Of a DNA stretch of 64,000 nt, positions 92-48,688 are shown one piece after another. Position numbers and translations under genes: made by a program. This DNA comes from a virus: the IMG/VR virus record IMGVR_UViG_3300033233_000031, positions 7,489 through 71,488 of that record. One strand, written 5' to 3'. The notes below the pieces were generated by a model. That model worked only from the letters and a program-made list of their open reading frames with translations. It had not been told where the DNA came from and ran no database searches. How positions within the stretch are numbered: the stretch's first letter is position 1; each line of letters begins with the position of its first letter.

Positions 92-181
92 ATGAAGGAC
101 ATGATCCACATCATCTGGGCCGTCGTACTGGGTGGTGCGCTAGGCATCGCTATCGCCGAACTATGGAAGCGGCTGCTGTGA
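92..181 (+). CDS. small single-TM membrane protein (29 aa)
   Basis: MKDMIHIIWAVVLGGALGIAIAELWKRLL read from the sequence; ATGA overlap upstream and GTGA overlap with the next gene. Confidence 0.6.
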   Translation: MKDMIHIIWAVVLGGALGIAIAELWKRLL

Positions 182-906
182 CTGAGGCCGAGACGGTAGC
201 CCTGCTCGTCGACCTGCTTGAGTCCCGTGAGCCCTTCTGCCACGTCCGCTTCGGCGACGGCGATGTCTTCTTTGCCACCGGCACCGGACCAACGCTCACG
301 GCGGACGGCGAGGAGTGGTCGTCGGGTCTGCAGTGGCAGCTGATCAACGCCTGGGGCAGGGTCGCCATCGCTCGTCATCGCCTGCTCGTCGGCGATGTCA
401 GCTCCTACGCGGTCGACGACGGCTGCGGCCACGAGTGGGACGTGATGCGCGAGTACGCCGTCTATCTCCGCGGCAAGGATCTCTCCCCCATGGAGCTCGT
501 GCACATCGAGGCCTTGCGTGCCGGCTTCGGATACGCACTCCCTGCCTACCAGGCGATCGCCGCCGACCCGCGCAAGAAGCTCTACATCGGGCCCAAGGTG
601 CTCGAGCCCGCCGCCGAGATGCTCAAGGCCGATTTCCGCGAAGTCCCGCTGCACGTCGCATGGGAGCCGCGCCCTCGCCGGGACGCTCTAGAGGGCTTCG
701 AGGAGTATGAGGTGATCCTCTTCTCCGCCGGCCGCGGCGGCAAGATCATGCAGGGGCAGATCTGTCACTCCGGCCATCATCCGGTCACGCAGATCGACAT
801 CGGCTCCGGGCTCGACATTCTCTTCGGCGGCGTGAAGCGCGGCACGGACGCCGGCGTTGACATCGACGCGCTGAAGGCGCAGTACAGAGATGCGGGGCTC
901 TTGTGA
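178..906 (+). CDS. GT-D fold (DUF1792-like) glycosyltransferase
   Basis: VRFGDGD motif near the N-terminus and QIDIGSGLD near the C-terminus; GTG start overlaps the upstream stop. Confidence 0.65.
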   Translation: MTEAETVALLVDLLESREPFCHVRFGDGDVFFATGTGPTLTADGEEWSSGLQWQLINAWGRVAIARHRLLVGDVSSYAVDDGCGHEWDVMREYAVYLRGKDLSPMELVHIEALRAGFGYALPAYQAIAADPRKKLYIGPKVLEPAAEMLKADFREVPLHVAWEPRPRRDALEGFEEYEVILFSAGRGGKIMQGQICHSGHHPVTQIDIGSGLDILFGGVKRGTDAGVDIDALKAQYRDAGLL

Positions 907-1613
907 GCGAGACGTTCGTTGTTCCAGATGCGCACGGCAACGGCACGCTCGTCCGCGGGCTGTTGAAGCAGGAGGGCTTACCTCGTCCTGGCGTTTTCGT
1001 CGTCCAACTCGGAGATCTTGCCAACTGCGTACTGGAGTCCGAGGCCGATGACATGGACGCGCTATCGATCGTGGGCGACGGGATCGATCTGATGCTGCTC
1101 GGCAATCACGAGGCTCCAATGCTCAATTCCGACTACTCCGCCCGCTTCGTGGGCTTCTACCAACATGCCTCCGTCCACCACATGATGAAGCATCTCGTCA
1201 GCCGCGACGCGATCCAGCTGTCGTATGTCGCCGACGATGTGCTAGTTACACATGCTGGGCTCTCGAGCTACTGGGGGAGACCTGACAAGACGGCCGAGGC
1301 CGCGCATCAGAATCTCGAGCACGCGTGGCGCAGTGGGAGCTGGCGCCACGATTCGATCGTGATGGCTTGTGGTCGCGCGCGCGGCGGCTTCAACGCCGAA
1401 GGCGGCATCCTCTGGTCAGACTGGAGCGAGCCGAAGCGATCTGCGTTCCCGCAGCTTGTCGGACACAGCGTCGGCGAGGAGATCAGGCGGAAGAGGTCGG
1501 CGATCTGCATCGACCTCGGAGCCGGCAAGCAGCGCACCCGCATCGCAGGGGCATGGATTCGGGATGGCGAGATCACAACCGTCGAGTACAGAGAGGCGGG
1601 GCTTCTGACATGA
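903..1613 (+). CDS. calcineurin-like metallophosphoesterase
   Basis: DAHG, LGDL, GNHE, THAG and GHS motifs in canonical order. Confidence 0.85.
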   Translation: MSETFVVPDAHGNGTLVRGLLKQEGLPRPGVFVVQLGDLANCVLESEADDMDALSIVGDGIDLMLLGNHEAPMLNSDYSARFVGFYQHASVHHMMKHLVSRDAIQLSYVADDVLVTHAGLSSYWGRPDKTAEAAHQNLEHAWRSGSWRHDSIVMACGRARGGFNAEGGILWSDWSEPKRSAFPQLVGHSVGEEIRRKRSAICIDLGAGKQRTRIAGAWIRDGEITTVEYREAGLLT

Positions 1614-1681
1614 GCCCATCCAGCGGAGCCCGGTCAGGGACCGTACCGAGCCGCAGCCAGCGGGGCGCGGGCGACGGTCGC

Positions 1682-1810
1682 ATGAGCACGACCACGCACA
1701 AGCTCAGTTGCGGTCACCAGACATTCGAGGCTCCAGTCAGCGCGGGCCCGAGCGGCAAGTGGTACCGCTGCCCCGAAGGCTGCGGGCTGCAGAAGCAGAA
1801 GGGTCGGTAA
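1682..1810 (+). CDS. small zinc-ribbon protein
   Basis: LSCGH...CPEGCG in 42 aa; TAATG coupling to the next gene. Confidence 0.5.
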   Translation: MSTTTHKLSCGHQTFEAPVSAGPSGKWYRCPEGCGLQKQKGR

Positions 1811-2031
1811 TGGCCGAGCTCGATGCTCCAGCCAAGTGCCCCTTGCTGTGTCGGCTTGGCTTGCATCGTTTCTCGTTCTACGACCGAACTATCAAAGCGC
1901 CATCCGGCCGCCAGGCGAGGGTGATCACGTACGTCTGGTGTCGGAGGCTGTGCCCAGCCTATGGCCAGCCCGTAGCCGTCAACGTCGACACAATCATCAT
2001 CTCCCGAGAGCGCGAAAGGAGAAGCGCATGA
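1810..2031 (+). CDS. small Cys/His phage protein (DUF1660-like)
   Basis: LLCRLGLHRF...WCRRLC pattern; coupled overlaps on both sides. Confidence 0.5.
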   Translation: MAELDAPAKCPLLCRLGLHRFSFYDRTIKAPSGRQARVITYVWCRRLCPAYGQPVAVNVDTIIISRERERRSA

Positions 2032-2342
2032 GCACCGCAAAGCAGCCCACCCAGCCACCGCAGTTCGACGCCGGCGCATTCGCCAAGCACGCGGGCATCA
2101 CCCCTGCTGACATCGCGAACTTCCAGAAGTGGAAGCAGTGGGTCGGCGGCGAGCTCGCATTCGACGGGGTCGGTCTCAGGGATGTCGTGGCAACGAACGC
2201 CACCTTCCTGAATGCCGTGAAGCAGAACGTCGATCAGAACGGCGCCGGGATCGTAAGCCTGGAGGAGCGCGTCACCGTATTGGAGGCCCGCCCCGCGGTC
2301 CCTTTCCCGGCATCTGGACAACTCAAGGATGGAGGAACATAG
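2028..2342 (+). CDS. hypothetical protein with C-terminal coiled coil; probable 0-frame partner of a -1 frameshift
   Basis: AAAGGAG RBS; IVSLEERVTVLEAR heptads; C_CCT_TTC at 2300-2306. Confidence 0.7.
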   Translation: MSTAKQPTQPPQFDAGAFAKHAGITPADIANFQKWKQWVGGELAFDGVGLRDVVATNATFLNAVKQNVDQNGAGIVSLEERVTVLEARPAVPFPASGQLKDGGT

Positions 2343-2920
2343 AGAGCTGGCGCTCAGACGTCCCTGGCACGATCGCTCGCATCAAGGCGCGCCCGGAGAA
2401 CTTCAAGTGGGTCCTGGTCGAGCACGGCGAGACACCGGAAGCCCTGAAGCCGCAGATCCTGTCGGAGTGCCACGCCCAGGGATTGATGTGCGGCATCTGG
2501 GATCCAGCCGTCGAGTTCGATAGCGCGGTGCAGGTCGCTGCCAATTTCGACTGCTGGGTCGGCCAGGTCGAAGGTCCGAATCAGTACGACCGCTGTCTGC
2601 AGAACATCGACCCGCTGCGCCAGGCGCACCCGGTGCCGTACCCAGCGGCGATCGTGACGAACTTCGGCGGCCTCGGCACGGCCGATCTTGCCAAGCCGTT
2701 CATCGACGCCGAACTCTTCTGTATCACCGAGGCGCACATCGGCGAGGGCGACGTGGTCGACAAGACTGAGGATCGACTGGCCTACGCGGCGAACGTGCTC
2801 AAGTGGCCAGGGCCGCAGCCGATGGCTGGTCTCGGCGGCGGCGTCTCGCTGTCCCAGTACACCACGCTGAAGCAGCACTCGGGCTGGAGCGCCTTCGCCG
2901 CCGAGGAGCTACTCACATGA
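2300..2920 (+). CDS. -1 frame extension, possible glycoside-hydrolase-like (TIM barrel) domain
   Basis: Protein-like reading from PFPGIWTTQG onward with no suitable start codon; alternating alpha/beta pattern; the hydrolase call is weak. Confidence 0.55.
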   Translation, partial: PFPGIWTTQGWRNIESWRSDVPGTIARIKARPENFKWVLVEHGETPEALKPQILSECHAQGLMCGIWDPAVEFDSAVQVAANFDCWVGQVEGPNQYDRCLQNIDPLRQAHPVPYPAAIVTNFGGLGTADLAKPFIDAELFCITEAHIGEGDVVDKTEDRLAYAANVLKWPGPQPMAGLGGGVSLSQYTTLKQHSGWSAFAAEELLT

Positions 2921-2930
2921 GGAGCTAGCG

Positions 2931-3275
2931 ATGTCCTACCCCATGACGTGGCAGCGGGTCGTGAACCGCAACCGCCTGCAAGACGGAGACTACGGCAGCA
3001 AGATGTCGGGCCTCAACACGAAGCCGTGGGATCGAGAGGTGCTCGCGCGCTTCAATGACGACGCCGACCGCGTGGATCTGCTGCTCGGCCAACGCGAAAC
3101 GGTCTGTCGCGAGATCGACACCCTGAACAATCGATGGGGAGCGTTGCTCGGCGACATCCGTCGCCTCGAGCAGGACGTCGTCGACGAGCAAGCGATCGCG
3201 AAGCAGATCGCTCACCGTCTGGGTATCGCCGACGACTTCGTCGCGGCAGTGCTCAAGGAGTTCATGAGCATCTAG
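2931..3275 (+). CDS. hypothetical coiled-coil protein
   Basis: GAGGAG RBS; 114-aa helical ORF. Confidence 0.65.
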   Translation: MSYPMTWQRVVNRNRLQDGDYGSKMSGLNTKPWDREVLARFNDDADRVDLLLGQRETVCREIDTLNNRWGALLGDIRRLEQDVVDEQAIAKQIAHRLGIADDFVAAVLKEFMSI

Positions 3276-3308
3276 GCTTGTCGTCAAATTTCCAAAAGAG
3301 GAGCAAAG

Positions 3309-3935: not shown

Positions 3936-3942
3936 GAAGCCG

Positions 3943-4326
3943 GTGAGCGTTCGAGCCCCAGTCGGACCCAAGCCGCATCCCGGTGACAAGAAGCGGCGCC
4001 TCGCTCTGCAGGAGCTCTACGACGAGCTGCCGAAGATCGACTGCAAGCAGCAGTGCTCCGAGTCCTGCGGTCCGGTCTTCATGACGCGCGTCGAATGGCA
4101 GAGCGTCTGCCGCGTGGTCGGCGAAGAGCGAAAGGGCGACGCAGATCTCACCTGCCCGATTCTTGAAGAGGGGCTCTGCTCGGCCTACGAGGTGCGGCCA
4201 ATGCTCTGTCGTCTCTGGGGCGTCGTCGAGTCGATGAAATGCCCCTGGGGCTGCATCCCAGAGCGGTGGCTCACTGCCGATCAGGGTCACGAGTTCCTCG
4301 CGCGGACAGCCGAGATCGGATCGTGA
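3943..4326 (+). CDS. YkgJ-family cysteine cluster protein
   Basis: CKQQCSESC...CPIL...CSAYEVRPMLCR motif. Confidence 0.8.
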   Translation: MSVRAPVGPKPHPGDKKRRLALQELYDELPKIDCKQQCSESCGPVFMTRVEWQSVCRVVGEERKGDADLTCPILEEGLCSAYEVRPMLCRLWGVVESMKCPWGCIPERWLTADQGHEFLARTAEIGS

Positions 4327-4334
4327 GGGGAGAG

Positions 4335-5087
4335 GTGGCACACGTCGACGTGCTCTACGTTGCCTGGAACCGCCGCGAGTTCACAACCGCGACCTGGGCC
4401 TGGATGATCGCGCACACCAACTGGAAGCTCGTCAACAAGCTCATCGTCTACGACGACGGCTCGAGCGACGGGACGCTTGAGTTCCTCCGCGAGCAGACCG
4501 AGAAGGGGAAGATCCCACTTCGTCGCTCCACGCGCGACGTGCCGATCGAACTGCGCCTCTCGAACACGGGCTCGCCGCCGGCGATCATGAACCACTATCT
4601 CACGACGGCGGAGGCCGAGTTCTTCGCGAAGATCGACAGCGATATCGCACTTCCCGGCAGCTGGCTCGACCGCTTGCTCGATGTCATGCACCAGCATCCC
4701 GAGCTCGATCTGCTCGGAATGGAAGCGGGCATGGTCGCGCTCGACGGACGCGACGGCAAGAACTACGAGCGCTACGACGCCTCCCCTTGCTCGCACATTG
4801 GCGGCGTCGGCTTGATGCGCGTCTCGGCCTTCAAGTCGCGACCGGAGATTCCCTATCGCGGCAGGTTCGGATTCGGGGAGTGGCAGGATCGCTACGAGCC
4901 CACGCGGGCATGGATCGAACCGGATCTACTGGTGCCCCAACTCGACCGCGTTCCGACGGAGCCCTGGGCCTCTCTCACGGAGGAGTACATCGAGAACGGA
5001 TGGAGTCGCCCGTGGCCGAAGTACGACCCCGACTGGATGCTTCCCTATTTCAACTGGGTCAATCTTGAGCCAGAGGTGACCGGGTGA
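4335..5087 (+). CDS. glycosyltransferase family 2
   Basis: VAWNR, VYDDGSSDGT and KIDSD (DxD) motifs. Confidence 0.85.
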   Translation: MAHVDVLYVAWNRREFTTATWAWMIAHTNWKLVNKLIVYDDGSSDGTLEFLREQTEKGKIPLRRSTRDVPIELRLSNTGSPPAIMNHYLTTAEAEFFAKIDSDIALPGSWLDRLLDVMHQHPELDLLGMEAGMVALDGRDGKNYERYDASPCSHIGGVGLMRVSAFKSRPEIPYRGRFGFGEWQDRYEPTRAWIEPDLLVPQLDRVPTEPWASLTEEYIENGWSRPWPKYDPDWMLPYFNWVNLEPEVTG

Positions 5088-5473
5088 ATAACCGGGTGAA
5101 GAACGAGAAGGCAGCGCTCTGGCGGAACCGTGCCAAGTCGCTCAATGACCGGGCGCGAATGTTCCAGGCTGACGGGCACTTCACTCCTTCAGATCTGCGA
5201 GAGATCGTTCGTCGCGACGGATCGATATGCGTCTACTGCTCGCTGGCACTCGACTACTCAGTCGCCGGAGATAACTCCCAGAACGCCGCCAGCTTTGACC
5301 ACATCATTCGCCTGACAGATGGTGGCTCGAACACATTCGAGAACGTCGTCTGCTCCTGTCGTGGATGCAACCAGCGTAATGCGAAGGAATCGACACGCGA
5401 CCCGCAGGCAGCGGCGCTGGAGCGTCTCCGGTGGTTCCTCTCGCGCAAGGCACAGCGGAGGGAGGTCGCATGA
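5084..5473 (+). CDS. HNH endonuclease
   Basis: RDGSICVYC...FDHII...GGSNTFENVVCSCRGCN. Confidence 0.9.
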   Translation: MNNRVKNEKAALWRNRAKSLNDRARMFQADGHFTPSDLREIVRRDGSICVYCSLALDYSVAGDNSQNAASFDHIIRLTDGGSNTFENVVCSCRGCNQRNAKESTRDPQAAALERLRWFLSRKAQRREVA

Positions 5474-6216
5474 ATCTCGTAGCCAGCATGATCGTGAAGA
5501 ATGAGATCGGACGCTACCTCCAGCCTTGCATTCGGCATTTGCTCTCCTACTGCAACGCGATCGTCGTTCTCGATGACCATTCGGATGACGGGACATTCGA
5601 GTGGCTGCAGGGGCAGGGCCGCGTAACAGTCGCGCGCAATCAGGGCCCGGCTTTCTACGAGCACGAGGGCAAGGCTCGGCAGGAGCTCTACCACCTCACG
5701 ATGGAGGCTAAGCCGACACATGTCTTAGCCATCGACGCGGACGAGTTCGTCGGCGACCCGAGCTGCGTGCGCCAGGCATGCGCGAGTGGTGTCGAGGTGG
5801 CAACGCTCACGCTCTCCGAAGTCTGGGCTGCCGATGAGAGCAATCTCTCGATCCGGGTGGACGGGCTGTGGCGCGCGCGCACCGTGCCGATCCTCTATCA
5901 GCCGCAGCCCGGCTGGACGATCAAGGACAAGGCGCTTGCGTGCGGCCGGGAGCCAACGCAAGTAGTCGAACGCTACGGCCGCGCCAAGTCGGCCGGATCA
6001 TCCATCCTCCACTTCGGCTGGACGAGAAAGAGCGAGCGGATCGCACGCGCCGAACGCTATGACGTCCACGACGGCGGCAAGTACCACCAGGACGCCCATC
6101 TGCGCTCGATCCTCTGGGAAGAGCAGCAGAACCGGAGGCTACGTCTCCAGAGCACCTTCTGGCCGGTGGAGCTGTTCGAGCACGCCGAGGAGATCTGCGC
6201 CATTGCCAACCGCTAG
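5470..6216 (+). CDS. glycosyltransferase family 2
   Basis: MIVKNE, VLDDHSDDGT, AIDADE and ILHFGW motifs. Confidence 0.88.
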   Translation: MNLVASMIVKNEIGRYLQPCIRHLLSYCNAIVVLDDHSDDGTFEWLQGQGRVTVARNQGPAFYEHEGKARQELYHLTMEAKPTHVLAIDADEFVGDPSCVRQACASGVEVATLTLSEVWAADESNLSIRVDGLWRARTVPILYQPQPGWTIKDKALACGREPTQVVERYGRAKSAGSSILHFGWTRKSERIARAERYDVHDGGKYHQDAHLRSILWEEQQNRRLRLQSTFWPVELFEHAEEICAIANR

Positions 6217-6234
6217 CGGTACTAGCCTTCCGAG

Positions 6235-11792: not shown

Positions 11793-12461
11793 CTGATCCC
11801 GACGAGAGTCGCCGCGCGCATCCAGGCTCATCCGAGTCGGGAGCATCTCTGGCCTGCGCTGATCGAATCGCTTGCTCCGCTCCCCGTCGAGGTGAGCGTC
11901 CACTCAAGTGAACCGCCGAGTCCCTGGGCTGGCTACAAGCAGGCGCTCACCGATCCACCGAACTGCACGCATCTGCTCGTGCTGCAGGAGGACGTCCAGG
12001 TCTGCCGCAATTTACCGCTAGCGGTAGAGAGGATCGCTGACGCGAAACCTGACAATCCTGTCTGCCTTTTCCTCAGCTGGCTGCCACCGCGTCTCGCGAA
12101 GGACGCGCGTCTCGCGGCGAAGATAGGTCAGCGCTACATCCAGGTGATGCCAGCCAACTTCTGCCCCGTGGTCGCAGTGCTCTGGCCGGTAGACGCCGCC
12201 GCTCGCTTTCTCGACTGGTCATCCCGCGCGAAGCTGCCAGGGCATCCCGGTCGAGTAGGTTCGGACGACGCGGTGCTCGGCGACTGGATCAAGCGGATGC
12301 GCGAGGTCGTCTGGATCACGGTGCCGAGTCTCGTCGAGCACCCCGACATGGTGCCCTCAGTGAAGGGTCGGAATAACGTCGGTTGGGGCAAGGACAAGAA
12401 CCGCGTGGCGCTGAACTGGATCGGTCGCGAGCGAGATCCGCTCGAGCTCGACTGGTCGTAG
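11793..12461 (+). CDS. GT-A-like glycosyltransferase (start uncertain)
   Basis: IQAHPSR, LVLQEDV, DDAVLG and PSLVEH motifs; first canonical start (11892) lies downstream of the AHPSR motif. Confidence 0.6.
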   Translation: MIPTRVAARIQAHPSREHLWPALIESLAPLPVEVSVHSSEPPSPWAGYKQALTDPPNCTHLLVLQEDVQVCRNLPLAVERIADAKPDNPVCLFLSWLPPRLAKDARLAAKIGQRYIQVMPANFCPVVAVLWPVDAAARFLDWSSRAKLPGHPGRVGSDDAVLGDWIKRMREVVWITVPSLVEHPDMVPSVKGRNNVGWGKDKNRVALNWIGRERDPLELDWS

Positions 12462-19733: not shown

Positions 19734-20126
19734 ATGGCTGCAGCACCTATCTACACCGGGACGGTCAATGTCGGCTCGGGGCTCGTCCCGGGGACAGCGG
19801 ACACGTCGCGCACGGCGCCGTCCAACGCCACAACGATCTTCACTGCCGGCTCGTCAGGTAGTCGTATCGAGGAGATCATCTTCCAGGGCGTTGGCACAAC
19901 CGTCGCAGGGATCGTCTGCGTCTTCCGCCACGACGGGTCGACCTATCACCTGATCGACGAGGTCGCCATCACAGCCGTCACACCGTCGACGACGGTTGCC
20001 GCTTTCCGCACGACGCGCCAGTACGCGAACCTACTCCTGAAGTCAGGTGACACGCTTCGTGTCACGACGCAGATCGCGGGCAACCAGTCGCTCGTCAAGG
20101 TCACCGCAGAAGGCGGGGACTTCTAG
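19734..20126 (+). CDS. fibre-associated structural/adaptor protein
   Basis: 130-aa beta-rich ORF between the collagen and glycine-rich genes; GGAGG RBS. Confidence 0.6.
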   Translation: MAAAPIYTGTVNVGSGLVPGTADTSRTAPSNATTIFTAGSSGSRIEEIIFQGVGTTVAGIVCVFRHDGSTYHLIDEVAITAVTPSTTVAAFRTTRQYANLLLKSGDTLRVTTQIAGNQSLVKVTAEGGDF

Positions 20127-20129
20127 AAG

Positions 20130-21059
20130 ATGAGCAACAAAGGGCTGCTTGGCCCTCCTCTGTCTGCGGTCGTCCCGGTCGACGTCCAACTCTTCACGCC
20201 GCTGAACGCTGCTCCCGTCTGGATCAAGCCTCGCGGCGCTACATGGGTTGAGGTCATTTGCGTTGGCGGTGGCGGTGGCGGCGGCACTGGGGCAGGGAAC
20301 ACAGGAGGCACCGCGGGCGGCGGCGGAGGCGGCGCTGGTGGCGCAGTCTCGGTTGCCCTAATGCGCGCCTCTGATCTGCCTGATGCGGTGGTCGTCATTG
20401 CCGGTGCTGGTGGCATCGGCGGAGCTGGCGACGGAGGGTTGAGTAGTTTCGGCTCACTGTTGAAAGCGGGCGGAGGTGGCGGTGGGGCAACGGGCGACAA
20501 CAACGGCGCTATCAGCGGGGGCGGTGGATCGGTTGTTGCCAGCGGCGTCGGTTCAACGGCTGGTGCTCCGTCGTCCGCTACCGCTATCGGCGGTCAGGCT
20601 GCAACATCTCCCGGCACAACGACAAACACGCCGGGCAACAACGCCGAGTGGGGCGGAGCTTCCGGCGGATGTGTTTCGGGAGGAGCCGTGGGGGGTGCAG
20701 CAGGCGGCAGCTCGATCTACGGCGGGCCTGCCGGTGGATCTGGCGCTGGCAAGGGAGCAGGATCTGGTAACGGTTCGGCGGGCCCGGGCGGCATCACGCA
20801 GTCTTACGCGGCTGGCGGTGGCGCGGCAGCCGGTGGCAGCGCTGGCGTGGCTGGGACGGCAGGCACGACCTTCCTCGGGCCTTACTGCGGAGGCGGCGGC
20901 GGAGGCGGCGGCAGCAACGCGGGGGCGGGTAATCCAAGCGGAGCAGGTGGAGATGGCGGCATCGGGGCTGGCGGCGGCGGCGCTGGCGCCGCTGATGTCG
21001 GGCAAGCCGCAACCGGCGGCAAGGGCGGAGACGGCTACGTGAGGGTGACTTGCTGGTGA
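20130..21059 (+). CDS. glycine-rich adhesin-like protein, paralog 1
   Basis: WIKPRGA..VICVGGGGGGG...GGKGGDGYVRVTCW. Confidence 0.8.
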   Translation: MSNKGLLGPPLSAVVPVDVQLFTPLNAAPVWIKPRGATWVEVICVGGGGGGGTGAGNTGGTAGGGGGGAGGAVSVALMRASDLPDAVVVIAGAGGIGGAGDGGLSSFGSLLKAGGGGGGATGDNNGAISGGGGSVVASGVGSTAGAPSSATAIGGQAATSPGTTTNTPGNNAEWGGASGGCVSGGAVGGAAGGSSIYGGPAGGSGAGKGAGSGNGSAGPGGITQSYAAGGGAAAGGSAGVAGTAGTTFLGPYCGGGGGGGGSNAGAGNPSGAGGDGGIGAGGGGAGAADVGQAATGGKGGDGYVRVTCW

Positions 21060-22073
21060 GCAACCGCGGGACATTCGGAATGCCTCTCGCCGCTCTAGCG
21101 GGAGTTGATATTCGCGTCTACACGCCGCTGGATTCCGCGCCCGTCTGGCTGAAGCCAAAAGGGGCGCGTTATGTTCGCGTGATCTGTATCGGCTCTGGAG
21201 GCGGTGGTGGCGGTGGTGCCACCAGCGTTCTCTCGGTCGGCGGCGGCGGCGGCGGCGGTGGGGGAGCAGTTTCTGTTGGTCTGTTCCGCGCTTCTGATCT
21301 TGCTGATGCCGTTCAGATCACAGCGCCTACCGGAGGCGTTGGTGGTGCCAATACCTTTGGCGGCGCAGCTGGCGGAACGACGTCTTTCGGTTCATACCTC
21401 AAGGCCGGCGGTGGCGGAGGCGGCGGCGCCGCTGACAACAGTGGGAACGGGCCTGGCGGTGGCGGTGGTGGAGGATCGGTTGTCGCCTCAGGTTCAGCTG
21501 GAGGCAACGCTCCGGGAAGCTCAGCAGGCGCAGGGGGCGCGGCCGGAGCGCCAAGCTCGGCTACTGCCATAGCCGCTCAAGCGTCTGCTGTCGGTGGAGG
21601 TGCTAGTGAGTGGGGAGGAGCTAACGCCGGAGGCGGTGGGTACCCAGGGGCAGGCAACAACGGAAACCAGTCGATCTATGGTGGCCCAGGTGGTGGCGGT
21701 GGAGGTGGCAGGCATAACAGTGGAGCCGCTGGCGCTGGCGGGGTCGGTGGAGGGACGCAGGGATATTCGTCCGGCGGAGGTGCGGCGTCCGACACCGCGG
21801 GTGTGTTCACAGGGCCGTACTGCGGACAGGGTGGCGGCGGCGGCACTGGTGGCAGCGGGGGCGTCGCCAGCAAAGGTGGTCTTGGCGCTGGCGGTGGCGG
21901 TGGCGGTGGGAATGGGGCAACAGGAGGAAACGGTGGAGACAGCCGAGTGATAGTGGTTTCCTGGTGAGCAATCCCGGCATCATGTCTCTGCCGAAGAGCG
22001 GGCGCTTCACGCCCGACGTCCAACTCTTCACGCCGCTGAACGCTGCTCCCGTCTGGATCAAGCCTCGCGGCGC
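20180..22073 (+). repeat. exact 60-bp direct repeat (20180-20239 and 22014-22073)
   Basis: CGACGTCCAACTCTTCACGCCGCTGAACGCTGCTCCCGTCTGGATCAAGCCTCGCGGCGC occurs in paralogs 1 and 3. Confidence 0.9.
21056..21967 (+). CDS. glycine-rich adhesin-like protein, paralog 2
   Basis: WLKPKGA..VICIGSGGGGG...GGNGGDSRVIVVSW; GTGA overlap. Confidence 0.8.
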   Translation: MSNRGTFGMPLAALAGVDIRVYTPLDSAPVWLKPKGARYVRVICIGSGGGGGGGATSVLSVGGGGGGGGGAVSVGLFRASDLADAVQITAPTGGVGGANTFGGAAGGTTSFGSYLKAGGGGGGGAADNSGNGPGGGGGGGSVVASGSAGGNAPGSSAGAGGAAGAPSSATAIAAQASAVGGGASEWGGANAGGGGYPGAGNNGNQSIYGGPGGGGGGGRHNSGAAGAGGVGGGTQGYSSGGGAASDTAGVFTGPYCGQGGGGGTGGSGGVASKGGLGAGGGGGGGNGATGGNGGDSRVIVVSW

Positions 22074-22914
22074 GCGCTTCGTCGAAGTCATCTGCGTCGG
22101 AAGCGGTGGTGGCGGCGGCGGTGGCGGTTCAGGCAATACCACCAACTCGGTCGTCGGTGGTGCTGGCGGCGGCGGCGGTGCGGTATCGGTGGCGTACATG
22201 CTCGCCTCCGATCTGCTGGATGTGGTCGCCATTACTGTCGCAGCTGGCGGAGCGGGTGGGGCGGCGGGAACGGGGAGTGGCGGGTCGGGTACTGCGGGCA
22301 CCAATGGAGCAGTGTCTAGCTTCGGTTCCTACTTGAAAGCCGGTGGCGGCGGCGGCGGCGCTGGAGGATTCCTGAATAACGGATCCACATCCGGTGGCGG
22401 CGGCGGGTCGGTTGTCACATCAGCCAGCGGCACGACAGCAGGCACGCCGTCGAGCGCTACGGCGATAGGCGGCCAATCGGGGACATCGGGGGCAAACGCC
22501 GCAGGGAATCCGGCCGAGTGGGGAGGTGCAGCTGGTGGCGGTACCGCCCAAGACAGTACGGGTCGGAACGGTGGCTGCTCAATCTACGGCGGGCCGGGAG
22601 GCGGCGGCGCTGGAAGCAACGCTGCTGGAGGCGCGGGTCACGACGGTTCTTCGGGAGGAACTACCCAGAGCTACAGCAATGGCGGCGGTGGAATAGCAGG
22701 CAGCAGCAGCCCTGGCGGAAATGGCACCCTATTTTTGGGGCCGTATTGTGGGAGCGCAGGCGGCGGCGGGTCGACACCTAATCCCACTGCTAACGATGGT
22801 GGCAAAGGTGGCTACGCAGCAGGCGGCGGCGGTGGCGGTTCTTTCTACGACCCGGGTACGGCTGGTGCTGGCGGCAAGGGTGGCGATGGCTATGTCAAGG
22901 TGACTTGCTGGTGA
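21964..22914 (+). CDS. glycine-rich adhesin-like protein, paralog 3
   Basis: WIKPRGA..VICVGSGGGGG...GGKGGDGYVKVTCW; GTGA overlap. Confidence 0.8.
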   Translation: MSNPGIMSLPKSGRFTPDVQLFTPLNAAPVWIKPRGARFVEVICVGSGGGGGGGGSGNTTNSVVGGAGGGGGAVSVAYMLASDLLDVVAITVAAGGAGGAAGTGSGGSGTAGTNGAVSSFGSYLKAGGGGGGAGGFLNNGSTSGGGGGSVVTSASGTTAGTPSSATAIGGQSGTSGANAAGNPAEWGGAAGGGTAQDSTGRNGGCSIYGGPGGGGAGSNAAGGAGHDGSSGGTTQSYSNGGGGIAGSSSPGGNGTLFLGPYCGSAGGGGSTPNPTANDGGKGGYAAGGGGGGSFYDPGTAGAGGKGGDGYVKVTCW

Positions 22915-22966: not shown

Positions 22967-23875
22967 ATGGGCCAGTCTGCTCTCAACAACGTCTCACTCA
23001 CCGGGGCCACCGGAGTCACGGGGGCAACCGGCACGGGGACGACCGGAGCGACCGGCGTCGGTCTGGATGGCATCGATGGGCTGCAGGGCCCGGCTGGCGC
23101 CGTCGGTGCCACGGGAGCTGGCACTACGGGCGCTACGGGTACGACCGGCGCGACCGGCACGTCAGGCCTTGACGGGATCGACGGCGAGAAGGGCGCAACA
23201 GGCGCTGGCGCGACGGGCACCACCGGCACCACCGGAGCGACAGGCACTACTGGCGCCACGGGTGTATCGGGACTCGACGGAATCGACGGAGAGAAGGGCG
23301 CGACCGGCTCAGGAGCGACCGGAGTCACGGGAGCGACAGGCACGACGGGAACGACCGGCGCCACGGGCGGCAAGGCGGCTGGAGTGATCTATGTCGCGGC
23401 GGCGGCTATGTGGCCTTCGATCACGAGCGGCTGCCAGACGCCGACGCAGACAGAAGCGGCGACGAACAAGGTGAACTACATCACCTGCGACTTCGATACA
23501 ACGACGCAGGAATTCGCCGAGTTCACGCTCGCTATGCCATCCGACTGGGATGCAGGAACGATCACGGCGCAGTTCTGGTGGACGGCGACCGGCACGAGCA
23601 CCAACTCGATCGTCTGGGCGCTCGAGGGTCGCTCGCTTGGTGACTCGGAGACGATCGACCAGTCGCAGACGGGTGCGCAGCAGATCGCGGACGCCCATAC
23701 GGCCACGGCATCGCAAGCTCAGCTGTCCGGGGCCACGCCGGCGATCACCCTGACGGGCGCGGGCGCCTCGGATCTCTGCTTCTTCCGCGTGAAGCGCGTC
23801 CCGGCGGATGGGTCGGACACGTTGGCAGTCGATGGCCAGCTGCTCGGCGTGGTCATCAACTACACGCGCGCATGA
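22967..23875 (+). CDS. short collagen-like protein with C-terminal beta-sandwich domain
   Basis: About 125 aa of interrupted GATG repeats, then [24 protein letters not shown] domain. Confidence 0.85.
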
Positions 23876-24612
23876 GCCTCATCATCCCGACCTTCAGGGC
23901 GGTCGACACCGCTGTGTTCACCTCGAACAACGTGGCGAACCCGACCACGCTCTCGCCAGCGCTCCCCACTCGTGTCCGCGGCGATGTGCTCCTCTGCTTC
24001 GCCTGGTCGAGATCAATCACAGCCACAGTGGCGACGCCAGCGGGATGGACGCTCCTCACGACCTTCCCGCTTCGCTCGGCAACGGCCTCAGGTGGCTCGC
24101 TTTACGTCTTCGCCATCCTCGTCGACGGGGCGGAGACTGCGCCATCGATTGTCTGGACGGGGCTCACGACGGGCACGAGCGGCGACGCTTCGGGGGCTGC
24201 GATCTGCTCCTACTCCGGCGTGGATGTCTCGCGCGGCATCGCGAACATTCAGGCCGGTACGGCGACGTCCAGCGATCAGGCCGGGAGCACCACGACCGTC
24301 ACGATCCCGGCGATCACACTGGTCTCACAAGCTCTTTGGGTCGGCTTTGCCCTGAAGCTCCTGGAGTCGGGCGCCGCAACTTTCACGCCGCCGACGAACT
24401 TCACCGAGCGCCTCGACTACAACACCACGACAGGTACGGGTCACTTCGGAGAGATCTCGGATCGCTTCCTGACGGCGATCGGATCCTCAGGATCGACGAC
24501 GTGCGCGCCCTCTGTCACGACATCGTCGCGGGCACTCGGTGTCTCCCTGGCTCTTCGCCGAGCTCAGCCGCCGCGGTCGATGACGAACTTCCAGAATCCT
24601 GGCCTGCTCTGA
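23872..24612 (+). CDS. Thr-rich structural protein
   Basis: [13 protein letters not shown] and TPPTNFTER internal repeat; ATGA coupling. Confidence 0.65.
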
Positions 24613-24640: not shown

Positions 24641-25234
24641 ATGGAGACACAGTTCACGCAAGAGCTCGACCACCAGGCATGGGAGAGCGACTGGTGGGGC
24701 AAGTGCCTGATCACCTTCGGCGAAGAAGCGAAGCAGCTCACCTACGCGCATGTGATGGGCCTCGTGAACATGCCGCGCGACGGCCACTGGCCGGTCTACG
24801 ACCTCGCAGGTAGATCTGTTCTAGATCTCGGCGGCGGCCCGGTCTCGATGCTTCTGAAGACGGTGAACGGAGCAACCCGCACCGTCGTCGACCCGTGCTC
24901 CTACCCCGACTGGGTGGGCGCGCGCTACGAGGCAGCCGGGATCGACTACGTCGTTCAGGAGGCGGAGACCTTCGCCGGTGAGCGCCACGACGAGGTCTGG
25001 ATCTACAACGTGCTGCAGCATGTGATCGACCCCAAGGCTGTGATCCGAACCGCGCAGAAGCACGGTGCGCTGCTGCGGATCTTCGAGTGGCTCGAGACGC
25101 CGGCGATGCCCGGGCACCCGCACACGCTGCACGCCGACAAGCTGAACAAGTGGATCGAAGCCACGGGCACCGTCAATCAGATCGACGAGAACGGAGCCGT
25201 CGGGCTCGCCTACTACGGTGCCTTCGAGCTGTGA
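24641..25234 (+). CDS. class I SAM-dependent methyltransferase
   Basis: VLDLGGGP motif I, VVDP and YNVLQHVIDP. Confidence 0.85.
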   Translation: METQFTQELDHQAWESDWWGKCLITFGEEAKQLTYAHVMGLVNMPRDGHWPVYDLAGRSVLDLGGGPVSMLLKTVNGATRTVVDPCSYPDWVGARYEAAGIDYVVQEAETFAGERHDEVWIYNVLQHVIDPKAVIRTAQKHGALLRIFEWLETPAMPGHPHTLHADKLNKWIEATGTVNQIDENGAVGLAYYGAFEL

Positions 25235-25578: not shown

Positions 25579-26739
25579 TTGAGTAGCGGAGCTCTGCACG
25601 TTGTCGCGATGCCACATGTCCAGACGAACGGCGCGTACTGGACGTGCGCCTATACCCAGAAGGTCATCAACTTCTGCCGGATGCACTACGGCCACGATCG
25701 CAAGGTCTTCCTCTATTCCGGCGAGGAGAACATCGCGCCCTGCGACGAGCACATCGTCTGCGTCACGAAGAAGCAGCAGAAGAGCTGGTTCGGGGAGCAC
25801 GACGAAGGCGACATCGACCGCGGCGGCTTCAACTTCAACGCGGCCGAGGCCTGGTGGACGGAGATGAACGCGCGCGCGATCGGCGAGATCAGGAAGCGCT
25901 GCGAGCAGACCGACCTTCTCTGCATCACGCAGGGCCAGTCGCAGCAGCTGATCGCCGACGCGATCCCGTTCCTGACCGTCGCCGAGATCGGTGTCGGCTA
26001 CGAGGGCATCATCCTCAGCCGCAAAGGTGGGCCGTGCTTCGCCGCCTACGAGTCGCTCGCCTTCATGCACTTCGTCTACGGCCTGAACGGATGGCGATGC
26101 CCGAATCGCTGGTACGACACCGTCATCCCCAACTACTTCGACCCGCAAGACTTCCCGCTCGTCAATCAGGGCGGTGGCGAGTATCTGCTCTTCATGGGCA
26201 GGCTCGTGCAGCAGAAGGGCGTCGACTGGGCGGCGAAGGTGGCAGCAGCGCTGGAGATGCCGCTGATCGTCGCGGGATCAGGCGCCACTGCGCATGGAGA
26301 CGGCTGGGTCGAGGTTGTCGACCCGCCGCGGCGGGTCGAATGTCCGGGGCTCAAGTACGTCGGCCCAGTCGGCTGGGAGGAGCGCGCAGAGCTCATGTCG
26401 GGCGCCGCGGTGCTGCTCGCGCCGACCATGTACCTCGAGCCGTTCGGCGGTGTCGCCGTCGAGGCCATGCTGGCCGGTACCCCCGCAGTCACGACCGATT
26501 GGGGCGCGTTCACGGAGACAGTCCAGGAGGATGTCTCCGGCTATCGCTTCCGAACTCTCTGGGGCGCGGTGCAGGCAACTCAGAAGGCGATGGAGCTCTC
26601 CAATCAGGGAATCCGCGACTACGCGATCGCGCGCTACTCGCTCGATGCAGTCCGCCCGCTCTACGACGAATGGTTCGCGCGTCTCGATGGCCTCTGGGGC
26701 CATGGTCTTCTCGATCTCCCGGAGAAGCAAACCGCCTAG
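25579..26739 (+). CDS. glycosyltransferase family 4 (GT-B)
   Basis: LFMGRLVQQKG and EPFGGVAVEAMLAGTPAVTTDWG motifs. Confidence 0.92.
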   Translation: MSSGALHVVAMPHVQTNGAYWTCAYTQKVINFCRMHYGHDRKVFLYSGEENIAPCDEHIVCVTKKQQKSWFGEHDEGDIDRGGFNFNAAEAWWTEMNARAIGEIRKRCEQTDLLCITQGQSQQLIADAIPFLTVAEIGVGYEGIILSRKGGPCFAAYESLAFMHFVYGLNGWRCPNRWYDTVIPNYFDPQDFPLVNQGGGEYLLFMGRLVQQKGVDWAAKVAAALEMPLIVAGSGATAHGDGWVEVVDPPRRVECPGLKYVGPVGWEERAELMSGAAVLLAPTMYLEPFGGVAVEAMLAGTPAVTTDWGAFTETVQEDVSGYRFRTLWGAVQATQKAMELSNQGIRDYAIARYSLDAVRPLYDEWFARLDGLWGHGLLDLPEKQTA

Positions 26740-37703: not shown

Positions 37704-37705
37704 CC

Positions 37706-43531: not shown

Positions 43532-43553
43532 TTCTCAGTCGGCTGAGAAACGA

Positions 43554-43585
43554 GAAAGAGCCCGGGCAACCGGGCTCTTTCTTTC
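43554..43585 (+). terminator. intrinsic terminator
   Basis: GAAAGAGCCCGG-GCAA-CCGGGCTCTTTC followed by TTT. Confidence 0.85.
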
Positions 43586-43617
43586 GAGGGGGGGCATCGA
43601 ACACTACTCCCCTTTGA

Positions 43618-47172: not shown

Positions 47173-47426
47173 CCCGGACGATCCCAAGCGCGAATACTGC
47201 CTCCCGAAGAGACGCGGCGGAAGGAAGCCGGACATCAGCCAGATCGCCGGCGGGATCCCCGTGAACGATCGCACCGCCGATCAGATCGGTCGCAGCTACA
47301 CGCGCGAGCAGATCGAGAAGTTCGAGGACAAGAGGCGTCGGCGATGAGCTTCAACCCGTACTGGCTCGCGGTTGCGGTTGGCTTCCTTCTCGGCGTCCTC
47401 GTCGAGCACCGCTGGGCGATCCTCTG

Positions 47427-48137
47427 ATGTCTATCGCGATCGTCATTCCCGTTCTCGGGCGACCGGAGCGGGCACCCTCGCTCGTCGAGTCGATCAAGAT
47501 CAGCACGACCGTCCCTCACCGCGTGCTCTTCATGCTCTCCCCGAATGACCGAGCTGGGCGCGTCTACGCCAAGCACGGCGAGGTGATCCTCGTCGAGTGG
47601 GAGTCTGGGCCCGGAGACTTCGCCCGCAAGACGAACCGCGGCTTCGCCGAGACGACTGAGGAGTTCATCTTCTGCGGTGCGACAGATCTGACCTTCGAGC
47701 CCGGATGGGACGTCCGCGCGCTCGATGTCGCCGAGTCCTCCGGCGCTGGCGTGATCGGCACCTGGGATGGAGCCAACCCGGTCGTGATGAAGGGCGACCA
47801 CTCGACGCACTCGCTCGTCCGACGTTCGTATGCCGAGGATCCTGGCTGCACCGTCGACGGAACGGGGGCGATCTACTGCGAGCTCTACGACCACCAGGCA
47901 GTCGATAACGAGCTGGTCGAGGTAGCGCAGATGCGCGGGCAATGGGCATTCTCGCCGTACTCGAGAGTCATCCACCACCATCCCTTCTTCGATCGCAGCA
48001 TTCCGATCGACGCGACCTACAAGAAGGCGTTGGCGAAAGGTCGAGATGACAGGGTGCTCTTCATGCAGCGACGACGGCTGTGGCAAGTAGAGGCGCGCGC
48101 TCGGCAGCGGCAAGAGCGGAGAGCGAGGATGAGGTGA
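47427..48137 (+). CDS. glycosyltransferase family 2
   Basis: IAIVIPVLGRP, N.G, GATDL (DxD variant), VDNE and IHHHP motifs. Confidence 0.8.
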   Translation: MSIAIVIPVLGRPERAPSLVESIKISTTVPHRVLFMLSPNDRAGRVYAKHGEVILVEWESGPGDFARKTNRGFAETTEEFIFCGATDLTFEPGWDVRALDVAESSGAGVIGTWDGANPVVMKGDHSTHSLVRRSYAEDPGCTVDGTGAIYCELYDHQAVDNELVEVAQMRGQWAFSPYSRVIHHHPFFDRSIPIDATYKKALAKGRDDRVLFMQRRRLWQVEARARQRQERRARMR

Positions 48138-48688
48138 ATGCGCTCCTGCTCGCACCACACTCGGATGACGAGGCGCTCTTCGCCTGTTACCTCTGCCTGG
48201 CGTTCAAGCCTCACATCGTCATCTGCACCGTGTCGCAGGCGCAGGAATCCTATGGCGTCAGTGCCGAGGAGCGAGCGTCCGAGAGCCTTGCGGTAGCTGA
48301 CCTCCTGGGGTGCGCCTGCACCCAGCTCGACTTCCTCGACACCGATCGCGGCGCGATCCGCAAGCCACTCATCGGCTGGCTCGAGCTCCACCGCGCGCAC
48401 AGCGAGGAGTACGACGTCGTCTTCGCGCCGGCGGTGGAGGAGGGTGGCAATGAGCAGCACAGTGCCGTGGGAGAAGCTGCCGACGAGGTGTACGGTGAGA
48501 TCGTCGTCCACTACCTCACCTACACGAGCGACGGCCGTTCGCGAAGCGACACAGAGTCAGAACCGCGCGACCCAGACTGGATAGGGATCAAGCTCGAAGC
48601 TCTTTCTCGCTATCGCTCACAGCTCCGTGTGCCAAACTGCCGCCCTTGGTTCTTCGATCTACTCGACCTTCGGGAGTGGCTGCAATGA
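48134..48688 (+). CDS. PIG-L/LmbE-family deacetylase
   Basis: LAPHSDDEAL, R..ES, GNEQH and KLEALSRYRSQ motifs. Confidence 0.85.
   Translation: MNALLLAPHSDDEALFACYLCLAFKPHIVICTVSQAQESYGVSAEERASESLAVADLLGCACTQLDFLDTDRGAIRKPLIGWLELHRAHSEEYDVVFAPAVEEGGNEQHSAVGEAADEVYGEIVVHYLTYTSDGRSRSDTESEPRDPDWIGIKLEALSRYRSQLRVPNCRPWFFDLLDLREWLQ

Follow-up and report, generated by a model that had tools for sequence, protein, structure and literature searches.

Evidence for two separable, probable virion-glycosylation modules in a phage genome, one of them linked to threonine-rich collagen-like fibre genes

We analysed the glycosyltransferase (GT) genes in a 64,000-nucleotide stretch of viral DNA, bases 7489-71488 of the 71,488-bp IMG/VR record IMGVR_UViG_3300033233_000031 (estimated completeness 95%), hereafter referred to as the window. 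A first-pass annotation had listed six GTs, a methyltransferase and a PIG-L family deacetylase and had proposed that all eight enzymes build one glycan on collagen-like virion fibres. The enzymes are all present, as indicated by Pfam and PHROG matches, alignments and fold evidence, with slight shifts of a few start positions. However, our analysis leans towards two separable modules for the glycosylation of virion proteins rather than one pathway dedicated to the fibres. A GT of family GT4, often paired with the methyltransferase, is tied to Thr-rich collagen-like fibre genes in numerous unrelated phages and probably sugar-coats these fibres, and the larger enzyme set probably adds sugars to other components of the particle. 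The independent gain and loss of the two modules was directly observed, as were the enzyme families, the gene order and its conservation.

The fibre module (module B) consists, in this order, of a collagen gene, variable open reading frames (ORFs), often a methyltransferase gene and the GT4 gene. A search for related loci with the single GT4 protein retrieved none, and an alignment profile was needed; the profile from 23 homologues gave more than 569 matches in IMG/VR, of which the best 80 were analysed. A collagen ORF was counted if it was located on the same strand and comprised at least 15 triplets. Among the 63 loci with at least 3 kb of upstream sequence, 17 had the end of the upstream collagen ORF no more than 100 bp from the GT4 start; the number rose to 30 at a limit of 1 kb, to 40 at 3 kb and to 49 at 5 kb. 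When 3 kb were available on both sides (52 loci), a collagen ORF occurred within 3 kb in 39 and at a distance of 3.1-8.6 kb in 12, and a single locus had none within 10 kb. Per kb of upstream sequence, 38 collagen ORFs were counted in the first kb (covered by 69 loci) compared to 0-3 at 4-10 kb.

As a control, 65 distinct viral collagen loci were collected by a DNA pattern that fixes the glycine codons only and is blind to position Y of the Gly-X-Y triplet. Only 2 of these 65 loci had a member of the GT4 family within 6 kb. The median fraction of Thr at position Y was 0.18 in the control collagens and 0.56 in the GT4-linked collagens (one value per GT4 cluster), and a fraction of at least 0.4 was reached in 16 of 63 controls but in 21 of 22 clusters of linked collagens (Fisher p=5e-9, Mann-Whitney p=1.4e-5). 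GT4 (and METHYLTRANSFERASE) keeps company with collagen, and the GT4 family is tied specifically to Thr-rich collagen repeats and not to collagen genes generally, as an enzyme-substrate relation predicts. Elsewhere, most linked collagens resemble Gly-Pro-Thr repeats (median 0.42 Pro per triplet), and the nearly Pro-free repeats of the window are one extreme among them.

In isolated phages, the methyltransferase and GT4 matched Synechococcus myophages only (52 and 45 records, respectively), among them ACG-2014f, S-CAM7 and S-CBWM1. The gene order in ACG-2014f is collagen (gp015), a small ORF (gp016), methyltransferase (47% identical), GT (32% identical), a 2-oxoglutarate (2OG)-Fe(II) oxygenase and a tail fibre gene; thus, a T4-like cyanophage and an actinophage-like siphovirus share the same cassette. 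The methyltransferase gene adjoins that of GT4 in 45 cyanophage records and in five further loci (L003, L004, L005, L041, L289). A Pfam scan of 105 neighbouring ORFs from 27 cluster representatives mostly gave no match. Those matches that were obtained belonged nearly all to virion families, i.e., portal, prohead protease, capsid, MuF, SU10 adaptor, Dit, Baseplate_J, sheath initiator and fibre chaperone, indicating that the GT4 family resides within structural modules of both siphoviruses and myoviruses. The non-virion matches were one further 2OG-Fe(II) oxygenase, one GT25, one MazG and one amidase. The oxygenases (PF13640) or GT25 genes beside GT4 were located at L002:10651-11244 (gp019 of ACG-2014f), L049:8699-9415 and L018:4700-5275. 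The PF13640 superfamily includes prolyl hydroxylases and GT25 includes the animal collagen galactosyltransferases, which suggests variable cassettes for post-translational collagen modification in some phages.

The whole contigs of six relatives of the phage were compared ORF by ORF, and the co-variation of GT4 and collagen rests on these six. In all of them GT4 and collagen are gained and lost together: both are present in G001, G002, G003, G005 and G009, and both are absent from G006 (54 kb, 100% complete, capsid protein 54% identical). In G006, the capsid gene, two ORFs and the adaptor gene are contiguous, and the methyltransferase, GT4 and a large collagen gene are missing; a short Gly-X-Thr ORF of 19 triplets is found in its tail-fibre region. 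Relatives that keep the collagen gene without GT4 were looked for, and none was found. Module B is positioned between portal and MuF genes in G002 and between the capsid-proximal ORFs and the adaptor gene in the window, G001 and G009, indicating that the cassette has moved as a unit. In G005 (87% complete), which has a collagen of 131 Thr-rich triplets, the GT4 gene comes after the collagen gene and encodes the sole Pfam-recognizable GT among 51 scanned ORFs, which argues that GT4 does not need other phage GTs. An open frame of 734 codons at the GT4 gene of G009 was discarded; its one-frame translation is full of stops, and it was assumed to be a chance frame in GC-rich DNA. Two minus-strand ORFs of the record (record positions 658-2026) have homologues of 57-77% identity in G009 (9279-10385), between collagen and GT4.

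The larger enzyme set (module A) behaves differently. In loci L315-L320, the genes for terminase, GT2c, PIG-L, o4531, GT32-like protein, o6695, GT-D, GT2a, GT2b, DUF1360, portal, MuF and gp110-like GT are contiguous, and the window genes for GT2c and PIG-L (47-48 kb) and those at 0.2-6 kb belong to one ancestral island. G006 has the complete island plus the gp110-like GT but lacks module B, and the window and G009 carry both island and cassette. GT-D, GT2a, PIG-L and the GT32-like gene were not found in the incomplete contigs of G001 and G002 (76% and 70%), in which only the terminase-side GT2 and the gp110-like GT, plus a weak GT2b-like match in G001, were detected. The modules are thus independent, since the island occurs without the cassette (G006) and the cassette without most of the island (G001, G002). 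The proposal that all eight enzymes assemble a single fibre glycan is not supported by this comparison. Placing a glycan on the fibres at all has gained support as far as GT4 and the methyltransferase are concerned, by their link to Gly-X-Thr collagens in cyanomyophages, IMG/VR contigs and prophage-like loci, the Thr-rich Y position and the co-variation with collagen in the lineage of the phage. In the record, about 20 kb of mostly minus-strand early genes plus the record ends (48688-64000 of the window; record 1-4530) interrupt the island, and the terminase gene comes after the lysis genes rather than ahead of the island; the arrangement reflects either a true rearrangement or an effect of assembly or permutation.

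With respect to the cassette proteins of the window, the first collagen (Table 1) contains 190 Gly-X-Y triplets, of which 93 have Thr at Y and 43 at X (136 Thr in total), and 2 Pro among 570 repeat residues. The second has 37 triplets, 19 of them with Thr at Y, and 1 Pro among 111 repeat residues. These counts agree with the initial description of two Gly-X-Thr, nearly Pro-free collagen genes, and the long uninterrupted Gly-X-Y runs with PF01391 matches predict a triple helix. The C-terminal domain of collagen 2 is 42-59% identical to the ends of GT4-linked collagens in L003, L004, L005 and L041 and is shared at the same level by the L047 collagen, 8.6 kb away from GT4. Its model (predicted local distance difference test score, pLDDT, 85) is similar to Eph ligand-binding, MAM and CBM22/28/61 domains, with template modelling (TM) scores of 0.5-0.6. 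No C1q or BclA entry is among the approximately 37 fold matches listed; as all these domains are beta-sandwiches, a distant relation to the C1q-like heads may exist. Such a predicted jelly-roll domain fits a receptor-binding tip. The methyltransferase and GT4 genes had been placed directly after the two collagen genes. The second collagen gene is indeed close, but a 246-aa ORF intervenes, the first collagen gene is positioned 5 kb upstream, and methyltransferase and GT4 genes are separated by an ORF of about 100 codons. The latter ORF (~25250-25563, plus strand), in the 375-bp gap, has the look of a winged-helix DNA-binding protein (LRLLDEDGPQSANELSKK...); such an ORF is missing in G001 and G002, where the methyltransferase gene abuts that of GT4. 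No Pfam or PHROG match was obtained for the 246-aa ORF, and the genes at its position differ from relative to relative. The variable ORFs of the cassette (19734, 23872) showed no significant similarity to same-place ORFs of G001-G003, G005 and the cyanophage, and a likeness of C-terminal motifs among them, noted by eye, was dropped as unsupported by sequence comparison. The small ORF and Gly_rich_2 paralogues between the collagen genes are probably further fibre or appendage components. The paralogues (20130-22914, 305-316 aa) end in VTCW in two cases and in VVSW in one, and a Gly_rich_2 protein is also present near GT4 in L020. The cassette is located within the head-neck part of the structural module, and the fibres may be mounted on head, neck or tail.

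The methyltransferase matches phrog_3603 (3e-52), has the glycine-rich motif I VLDLGGGP, and its nearest solved structures are UbiG-type O-methyltransferases (E 0.003). The E-x7-E motif, typical of the C-terminal domain of retaining GT4 enzymes, is present in GT4 as E277-x7-E285, with E285 invariant and E277 at least 90% conserved among 23 homologues. The GT4 family profile matches the solved structures 7fg9 (5.5e-37, aligning to residues 64-340) and 5zer (4e-21), and the nearest solved relatives are UDP-glucose alpha-glucosyltransferases. We infer acceptors, donors, linkage and the effect on the particle from the gene neighbourhood. GT4 would transfer a hexose from a host UDP-sugar to exposed Thr residues of the Gly-X-Thr repeats, and the UbiG-like methyltransferase would O-methylate the added sugar. 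In a triple helix, the side chains of X and Y point outward, and in animal collagen hydroxyproline stabilizes and hydrates the helix. The fibre sugars would replace this role of hydroxyproline and would coat or shield the fibre. As already noted in the first-pass annotation, no genes for nucleotide-sugar synthesis are visible; the ORFs scanned across the 71.5-kb record contained none of the corresponding Pfam families.

In bacteria, surveyed with one genome per species (best 80 of 198 matches), the GT4 family was found in Saccharimonadota, Bacillota, Chloroflexota, Actinomycetota and some Pseudomonadota. The collagens of the linked, prophage-like loci have Thr at Y in fractions of 0.4-0.9, and one Anaerolineae locus combines methyltransferase, GT4 and a collagen sharing the C-terminal domain of collagen 2. 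In the Nocardia albiluteola locus L242:5896-7053, GT4 is encoded in an ESX/type VII secretion locus, flanked by EccB on one side and EccA/EccD on the other and close to EccE and EspG, which hints that the Nocardia GT4 may glycosylate secreted substrates. Nocardia copies were recorded at L242, L240, L244-L246, L250, L252, L254, L255, L257, L258, L275 and L298. In a FastTree phylogeny of 85 dereplicated GT4 members, 50 were collagen-linked, 14 unlinked and 21 undeterminable. Linked members occurred in both halves of the tree, indicating that linkage is a property of the family and not of a single clade; their contexts were phages or prophages of Actinomycetota, Bacillota, Chloroflexota, Saccharimonadota and Pseudomonadota, plus a cyanophage. 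We give about even chances to the reading that one GT4 clade is a dedicated Thr O-glycosyltransferase of collagen repeats, which has spread along with the Gly-X-Thr gene through the phages or prophages of at least five phyla and through cyanomyophages.

Several observations weigh against GT4 as the enzyme that glycosylates the fibres. The acceptors of the nearest solved relatives are sucrose, tetrahydrobiopterin and phosphatidylinositol, and none of these relatives is a protein O-glycosyltransferase; GT4 might therefore extend a sugar rather than start on Thr. The IMG/VR loci are redundant and collapse into 27 clusters at 70% identity, one of which holds 37 of the 80 loci, and at the cluster level a collagen gene lies within 3 kb in 16 of 22 eligible clusters. 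The Thr-rich collagens among the controls (16 of 63) have no such GT4 nearby, and Thr at Y is generally common in bacterial collagens, amounting to 31.6% overall and 48.3% in Gram-positives according to the portion of a review available to us (PMC8968730). The Methyltransf_11 match of the methyltransferase barely reaches the threshold, and in G005 the methyltransferase homologue is located 40 kb from GT4. The linkage is weaker in bacteria than in viruses, with a collagen gene within 3 kb of GT4 at 15 of 38 eligible loci. Nocardia genomes have up to four GT4 copies, none of them beside a Thr-rich collagen gene, so that the family is not strictly bound to collagen. Finally, sampling for the tree favoured the linked member of each 85% cluster, which biases the ratio of 50 to 14.

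Module A comprises the remaining GTs and the PIG-L protein. The GT-D gene, earlier placed at 178, missed the threshold for the Pfam family GT-D-like PF22882 (E 0.065, 13 bits, cut-off 27), while a precomputed PF22882 match exists for one homologue. The AlphaFold model from an alignment of 26 homologues (pLDDT 94.6) matched at E<=0.001 only the DUF1792/GT-D structures 4phr, 4pfx and 5v4a (TM 0.51-0.53, probability 1.00) at 12-15% sequence identity, which bears out the earlier fold call. GT-D clusters were also indicated by an Atlas feature search, and an acidic GDGD-type motif near the N-terminus, RFGDGD, is invariant across the 26 homologues. Because of the sub-threshold Pfam score, the protein is filed as having a GT-D fold and not as a member of the Pfam family. 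For a GT-D-identical entry of the protein collection (P0121), the longest contig given has 130,796 bases, exceeding the 71,488-base record; the same phage may exist as a longer or concatenated assembly.

Homologues of GT2a are 44-45% identical and occupy the same island position in six relatives, in which GT2b and GT-D are syntenic as well. The assignment of GT2c is weaker; the protein by itself stays below the GT2 threshold (0.0046, 17.3 bits) and lacks a DXD motif, and PF00535 is matched by five of six aligned family members (best 6.9e-8). Its homologues (40-45% identical) come after the terminase gene in G001, G002, L316, L318 and L319, followed in the last three by PIG-L homologues of 25-33% identity. 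The PIG-L protein carries APHSDDE (Table 1), and (A/P)H(P/S)DD is the N-terminal metal-binding motif of PIG-L/LmbE de-N-acetylases. Residues 23-180 of the capsid-side GT at 11892 align to positions 52-202 of the 211 positions of phrog_854, a distant match that leaves the N-terminal quarter of the profile unmatched; the known members Che8 gp110 and Corndog gp38 score 1e-99 and 1e-74, and a direct phmmer comparison of the window protein with Che8 gp110 gave 4e-6. Homologues of this GT are encoded between MuF-like and capsid genes in G001, G002, G006 and G009 and, in L319, directly after the MuF-like gene at the end of the locus.

Upstream of the window, the record adds three candidates, namely a strong one, an FkbM methyltransferase (PF05050, 4e-16), and two weak ones, a GT32-like DXD protein (PF04488, 4.7e-5) and the FkbM-like ORF o4531, which did not align with the cassette methyltransferase. 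A homologue of o4531 is located immediately upstream of GT4 in G009. Island proteins also gave weak NCBIfam matches to EpsE, TuaG and MftF, and neither the GT2c nor the gp110-like family profile gave a significant match in the PDB. In tblastn searches against isolated phages, GT-D, the 11892 GT and PIG-L had no match, GT2b had one and GT2a one weak match, so that isolated phages give no context for the island.

Table 1. Features of the window (positions of the 64,000-nucleotide stretch)
Feature	Position	Strand	Match or remark
GT-D-fold glycosyltransferase	163..906	+	ORF 43-906; database protein 247 aa, so start 163
GT2 glycosyltransferase GT2a	4239..5087	+	PF00535 7e-6, 26.5 bits (cut-off 23.3); DDGSSDGT and DSD motifs
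GT2 glycosyltransferase GT2b	5431..6216	+	PF13704 2.4e-12, 47.6 bits (cut-off 27.5); LDDHSDDGT and DAD motifs
Several enzymes, then DUF1360	before portal	+	Pfam/PHROG scan
Portal	7138	+	
MuF-like gene	8667	+	
Small GT-A-like glycosyltransferase (gp110-like)	11892..12461	+	phrog_854 6.5e-11; between MuF-like and capsid genes
LuxR/sigma-like gene	12561-13262	+	LuxR/GerE-type helix-turn-helix (HTH); also matches phage sigma-factor family phrog_3282
Major capsid	13400	+	two conserved ORFs next
Collagen-like fibre protein 1, 754 aa	17466..19730	+	PF01391 1e-81; tail-fibre PHROGs
130-aa small ORF and three tandem Gly_rich_2 paralogues	19734..22914	+	PF21722 1e-5 to 8e-7; phrog_863
Collagen-like fibre protein 2, 302 aa	22967..23875	+	PF01391 5e-11; predicted C-terminal jelly-roll domain
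Ser/Thr-rich 246-aa ORF between collagen 2 and methyltransferase	23872..24612	+	G+C at third codon positions (GC3) 0.79
Class I SAM (S-adenosylmethionine)-dependent methyltransferase	24641..25234	+	Methyltransf_11 PF08241 21.4 bits (cut-off 21.2)
GT4 (GT-B) glycosyltransferase	25609..26739	+	PF13692 5e-16, 59.7 bits (cut-off 27); PF00534 1e-14, 54.7 bits (cut-off 26.4)
Head-tail adaptor	26773	+	
Tape measure	30202	+	followed by minor tail genes
Lysis genes	after minor tail genes	-	
Large terminase	45583	+	followed by GT2 (47427) and PIG-L (48080)
GT2 glycosyltransferase GT2c, beside large terminase	47427..48137	+	family-level PF00535
PIG-L family de-N-acetylase	48080..48688	+	PF02585 31.7 bits (cut-off 28.2); APHSDDE at residues 25-31
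Early genes, ~15 kb	after PIG-L	mostly -	

The position of module A and its relatives point to the particle itself. Freeman et al. reportedly described virion glycosylation of the mycobacteriophages Che8, Corndog and Myrna in 2023 (Cell Host Microbe). In Corndog, a methyltransferase and three GTs are encoded between portal and protease genes, a position comparable to that of the island. As far as the available passages go, a 2025 paper describes Che8 gp110 and Corndog gp38 as essential GTs for capsid glycosylation, and two other papers name capsid and tail-tube proteins as the targets of the Corndog and Che8 enzymes. The membership of the capsid-side GT in this family is a further point against a single fibre pathway. 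A virion glycan of the Che8/Corndog kind appears to be the best reading for module A by position and relatives, with the host envelope as a serious rival. We infer that module A and the gp110-like GT may build on capsid or tail proteins a larger glycan that is methylated and has lost part of its N-acetyl groups. The three GT2 enzymes, the GT32-like protein and GT-D would add to this glycan, the de-N-acetylase would trim it and it would be methylated; module A may or may not also extend the fibre glycan. Two points weaken this reading: the acceptor is deduced from position plus a distant, partial family match (E 6.5e-11) only, and no obvious Ser/Thr-rich tail that could serve as a Che8-like acceptor was seen on the capsid or candidate tail proteins. 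The distant capsid relative Gordonia phage Phendrix has two annotated GTs, gp79 and gp80 (L327:12803-14730), between the genes for head-to-tail adaptor and major tail protein, unrelated in sequence to the window GTs; GT genes within structural modules may be common in this actinophage group.

The system resembles those of Che8 (gp108-110), Corndog (gp35-38) and Myrna, as far as they are described in the passages at hand, in that phage GTs and an O-methyltransferase, using host sugar donors, are encoded in or near the morphogenesis genes. The likeness to Corndog extends to a methyltransferase/GT cluster adjoining the portal gene, and that to both Che8 and Corndog to the shared family of the 11892 GT, gp110 and gp38. 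In contrast, the other window enzymes have no significant BLAST or phmmer match to those phages and belong to different PHROGs, the set is larger (GT-D, GT32-like, three GT2, PIG-L, FkbM), and the targets given for Che8 and Corndog in those passages are capsid and tail tube, not collagen-like fibres. The modelled GT-D protein shares the fold and the acidic motif near the N-terminus with 4pfx, 4phr and 5v4a, which we take to be streptococcal enzymes extending O-glycans on a serine-rich-repeat surface adhesin; unlike these, it is phage-encoded within a multi-GT island between terminase and portal and scores below the Pfam threshold.

How well the fibre assignment stands depends on what else GT4 and its partner might do. 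They could modify an envelope glycan, a lipid or a small molecule of the host, e.g., to block superinfection, and be found near collagen genes simply as both occur in hypervariable host-recognition islands. The small-molecule and lipid acceptors of the nearest solved homologues, the unlinked Nocardia copies and the variable genes between collagen and GT4 are in line with this, and two genome papers, in the parts available, assign GTs near fibre genes to host-surface or DNA modification. Yet such hitch-hiking accounts neither for the presence of GT4 at only 2 of 65 collagen loci, when most GT4 loci have a collagen gene, nor for the specific enrichment of Thr at Y in the linked collagens (p=5e-9). 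It also sits badly with GT4 starts within 100 bp of a same-strand collagen stop (17 of 63), with a cassette that moved as a unit (window compared to G002) and with the absence of any flippase, lipid-carrier or membrane-protein family among the 105 scanned neighbour ORFs, and we regard it as quite unlikely. Even less probable, in our judgement, is a single pathway of all GTs, the methyltransferase and PIG-L for a multi-sugar glycan that is specific to the collagen-like fibres. In its favour, the enzymes are real and encoded in or beside morphogenesis genes, island and cassette do occur together in G009 and the window, an o4531 homologue directly precedes the G009 GT4, and the 19-triplet ORF of G006 could be a target of the island. 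Against this, island and cassette vary independently (G006; the incomplete G001 and G002), the G005 collagen is accompanied by GT4 as the only recognizable GT, and the capsid-side GT belongs to a family said, in the passages available, to glycosylate the Che8 and Corndog capsids.

For the island between terminase and portal, modification of the host envelope, similar to serotype conversion, or of a secreted polymer instead of virion proteins is unlikely, but has to be taken seriously. GT2, GT32-like, PIG-L and FkbM proteins are typical of cell-wall and polysaccharide pathways, there are the weak EpsE, TuaG and MftF matches, the capsid protein has no visible glycosylation-site feature, and a DUF1360 membrane-type protein is encoded after the island. 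However, in seven genomes the island occupies the late-gene strand between terminase and portal, a location like that of the virion-glycosylation cluster of Corndog, and it is accompanied by a GT of the gp110 family at the capsid gene. Moreover, no family of polyprenol-linked initiating transferases, flippases or polymerases was found in the record, and the only fold matches of GT-D are streptococcal enzymes that presumably extend protein O-glycans. Glycosylation of phage DNA to evade restriction, the classic role of phage GTs, we consider highly improbable, even though a 7fg9-like GT has been proposed as a DNA glucosyltransferase in Rhizobium phage RL38J1 (in the part of the source available) and G005 has thymidylate-synthase-like, dCMP deaminase and C5 DNA methylase genes. 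These nucleotide-metabolism genes lie more than 25 kb from GT4, and the record of the window yielded no family of hydroxymethylases, TET/JBP-type oxygenases, nucleotide kinases or DNA methylases. GTs clustering with DNA-hypermodification genes were looked for without any such case, a single MazG is the sole nucleotide-related match among the 105 ORFs flanking GT4, and a DNA target would leave the link to Thr-rich collagens unexplained. A fibre glycan made by module B next to a separate virion glycan made by module A thus remains our preferred reading.

The remaining genome fits a siphovirus with an actinobacterial-type host, as the capsid protein is 35-37% identical to capsid proteins of Gordonia, Arthrobacter, Microbacterium and Mycobacterium phages. 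The GC content of the window is approximately 64%. A megablast search with 20 kb against 50,697 isolated phage records gave no match, hence the phage has no close relative there. The LuxR/GerE-type HTH protein (12561-13262) is encoded immediately ahead of the capsid gene and may regulate late genes. Three HNH endonuclease genes, at 5084-5473 (+), 28829-29410 (-) and 59127-59504 (-), look like homing-endonuclease insertions; the gene at 5084-5473 separates the island genes GT2a and GT2b, and one with an HTH domain is located on the opposite strand within the tail module. A scan of the region 13-30.5 kb for promoters and terminators was uninformative, as shuffled sequences gave more sites.

Both phage virion glycosylation and Thr-glycosylated bacterial collagens are already known. 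The nearest parallel to the fibre cassette is found on bacterial spores. According to the available part of the source, C. difficile SgtA, encoded beside bclA3, adds beta-GlcNAc (N-acetylglucosamine) to Thr of GPT repeats (PMC7157674), and a review, seen in part, credits glycosylation of BclA with better formation of a hydration network (PMC8968730). The likeness to C. difficile BclA3/SgtA and B. anthracis BclA, on the basis of these sources, lies in Gly-X-Thr repeats as (here proposed) acceptor, a GT gene adjoining the collagen gene and a Thr sugar proposed to aid hydration and stability of a hydroxyproline-free helix. As described there, however, SgtA is a GT-A enzyme with tetratricopeptide repeats (TPR) that adds beta-GlcNAc, whereas the window enzyme is a GT4 of predicted GT-B fold without TPR and with alpha-glucosyltransferases as relatives; the phage GT4 system would thus be an independent solution. 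BclA is located on the spore and has a C-terminal domain which we take to be C1q-like, while the window collagen occurs in a virion context and has a predicted jelly-roll domain similar to the ones in carbohydrate-binding modules (CBM) and Eph receptors.

Mimivirus, which has a eukaryotic host, glucosylates hydroxylysine by a bifunctional enzyme. It likewise encodes collagen-like proteins plus their modifying enzymes, as stated in the consulted part of PMC8968730; here, the likely acceptor would be Thr, the enzyme a GT4 and the virus a bacterial one. The TeGSS glucosylsucrose synthase 7fg9 and the UDP-glucose:tetrahydrobiopterin glucosyltransferase 5zer share the GT4 family, with UDP-glucose as donor according to the entry names and the listing of PMC9909042, but act on small molecules in cyanobacterial metabolism and have no link to a structural protein. 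In a full-text literature search, with most subscription journals outside its coverage, no paper was found that ties a GT to phage collagen-like genes, nor was a description of a seven-gene glycan island between terminase and portal; the passages of the Che8/Corndog literature at hand do not mention the GT4-collagen cassette.

Glycans on phage particles alter antibody recognition, a point made with respect to phage therapy in the available parts of papers citing the Che8/Corndog work. If our reading is correct, the fibre cassette would represent a second and far more widely distributed route to glycosylated virions, ranging from cyanophages and actinophage-like IMG/VR contigs to prophage-like loci of Saccharibacteria, Clostridia and Chloroflexota. 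Its target would be that part of the particle which meets the host surface, and many phage GTs annotated as modifying DNA or lipopolysaccharide, including those in host-recognition regions, would be protein-modifying enzymes. The pair of GT4 and Gly-X-Thr repeats would also offer a simple means to produce glycosylated, hydroxyproline-free recombinant collagens. Sugar-coated collagen fibres would then be a widespread and so far unrecognized feature of virions, and glycosyl-threonine would be a microbial answer to hydroxyproline.

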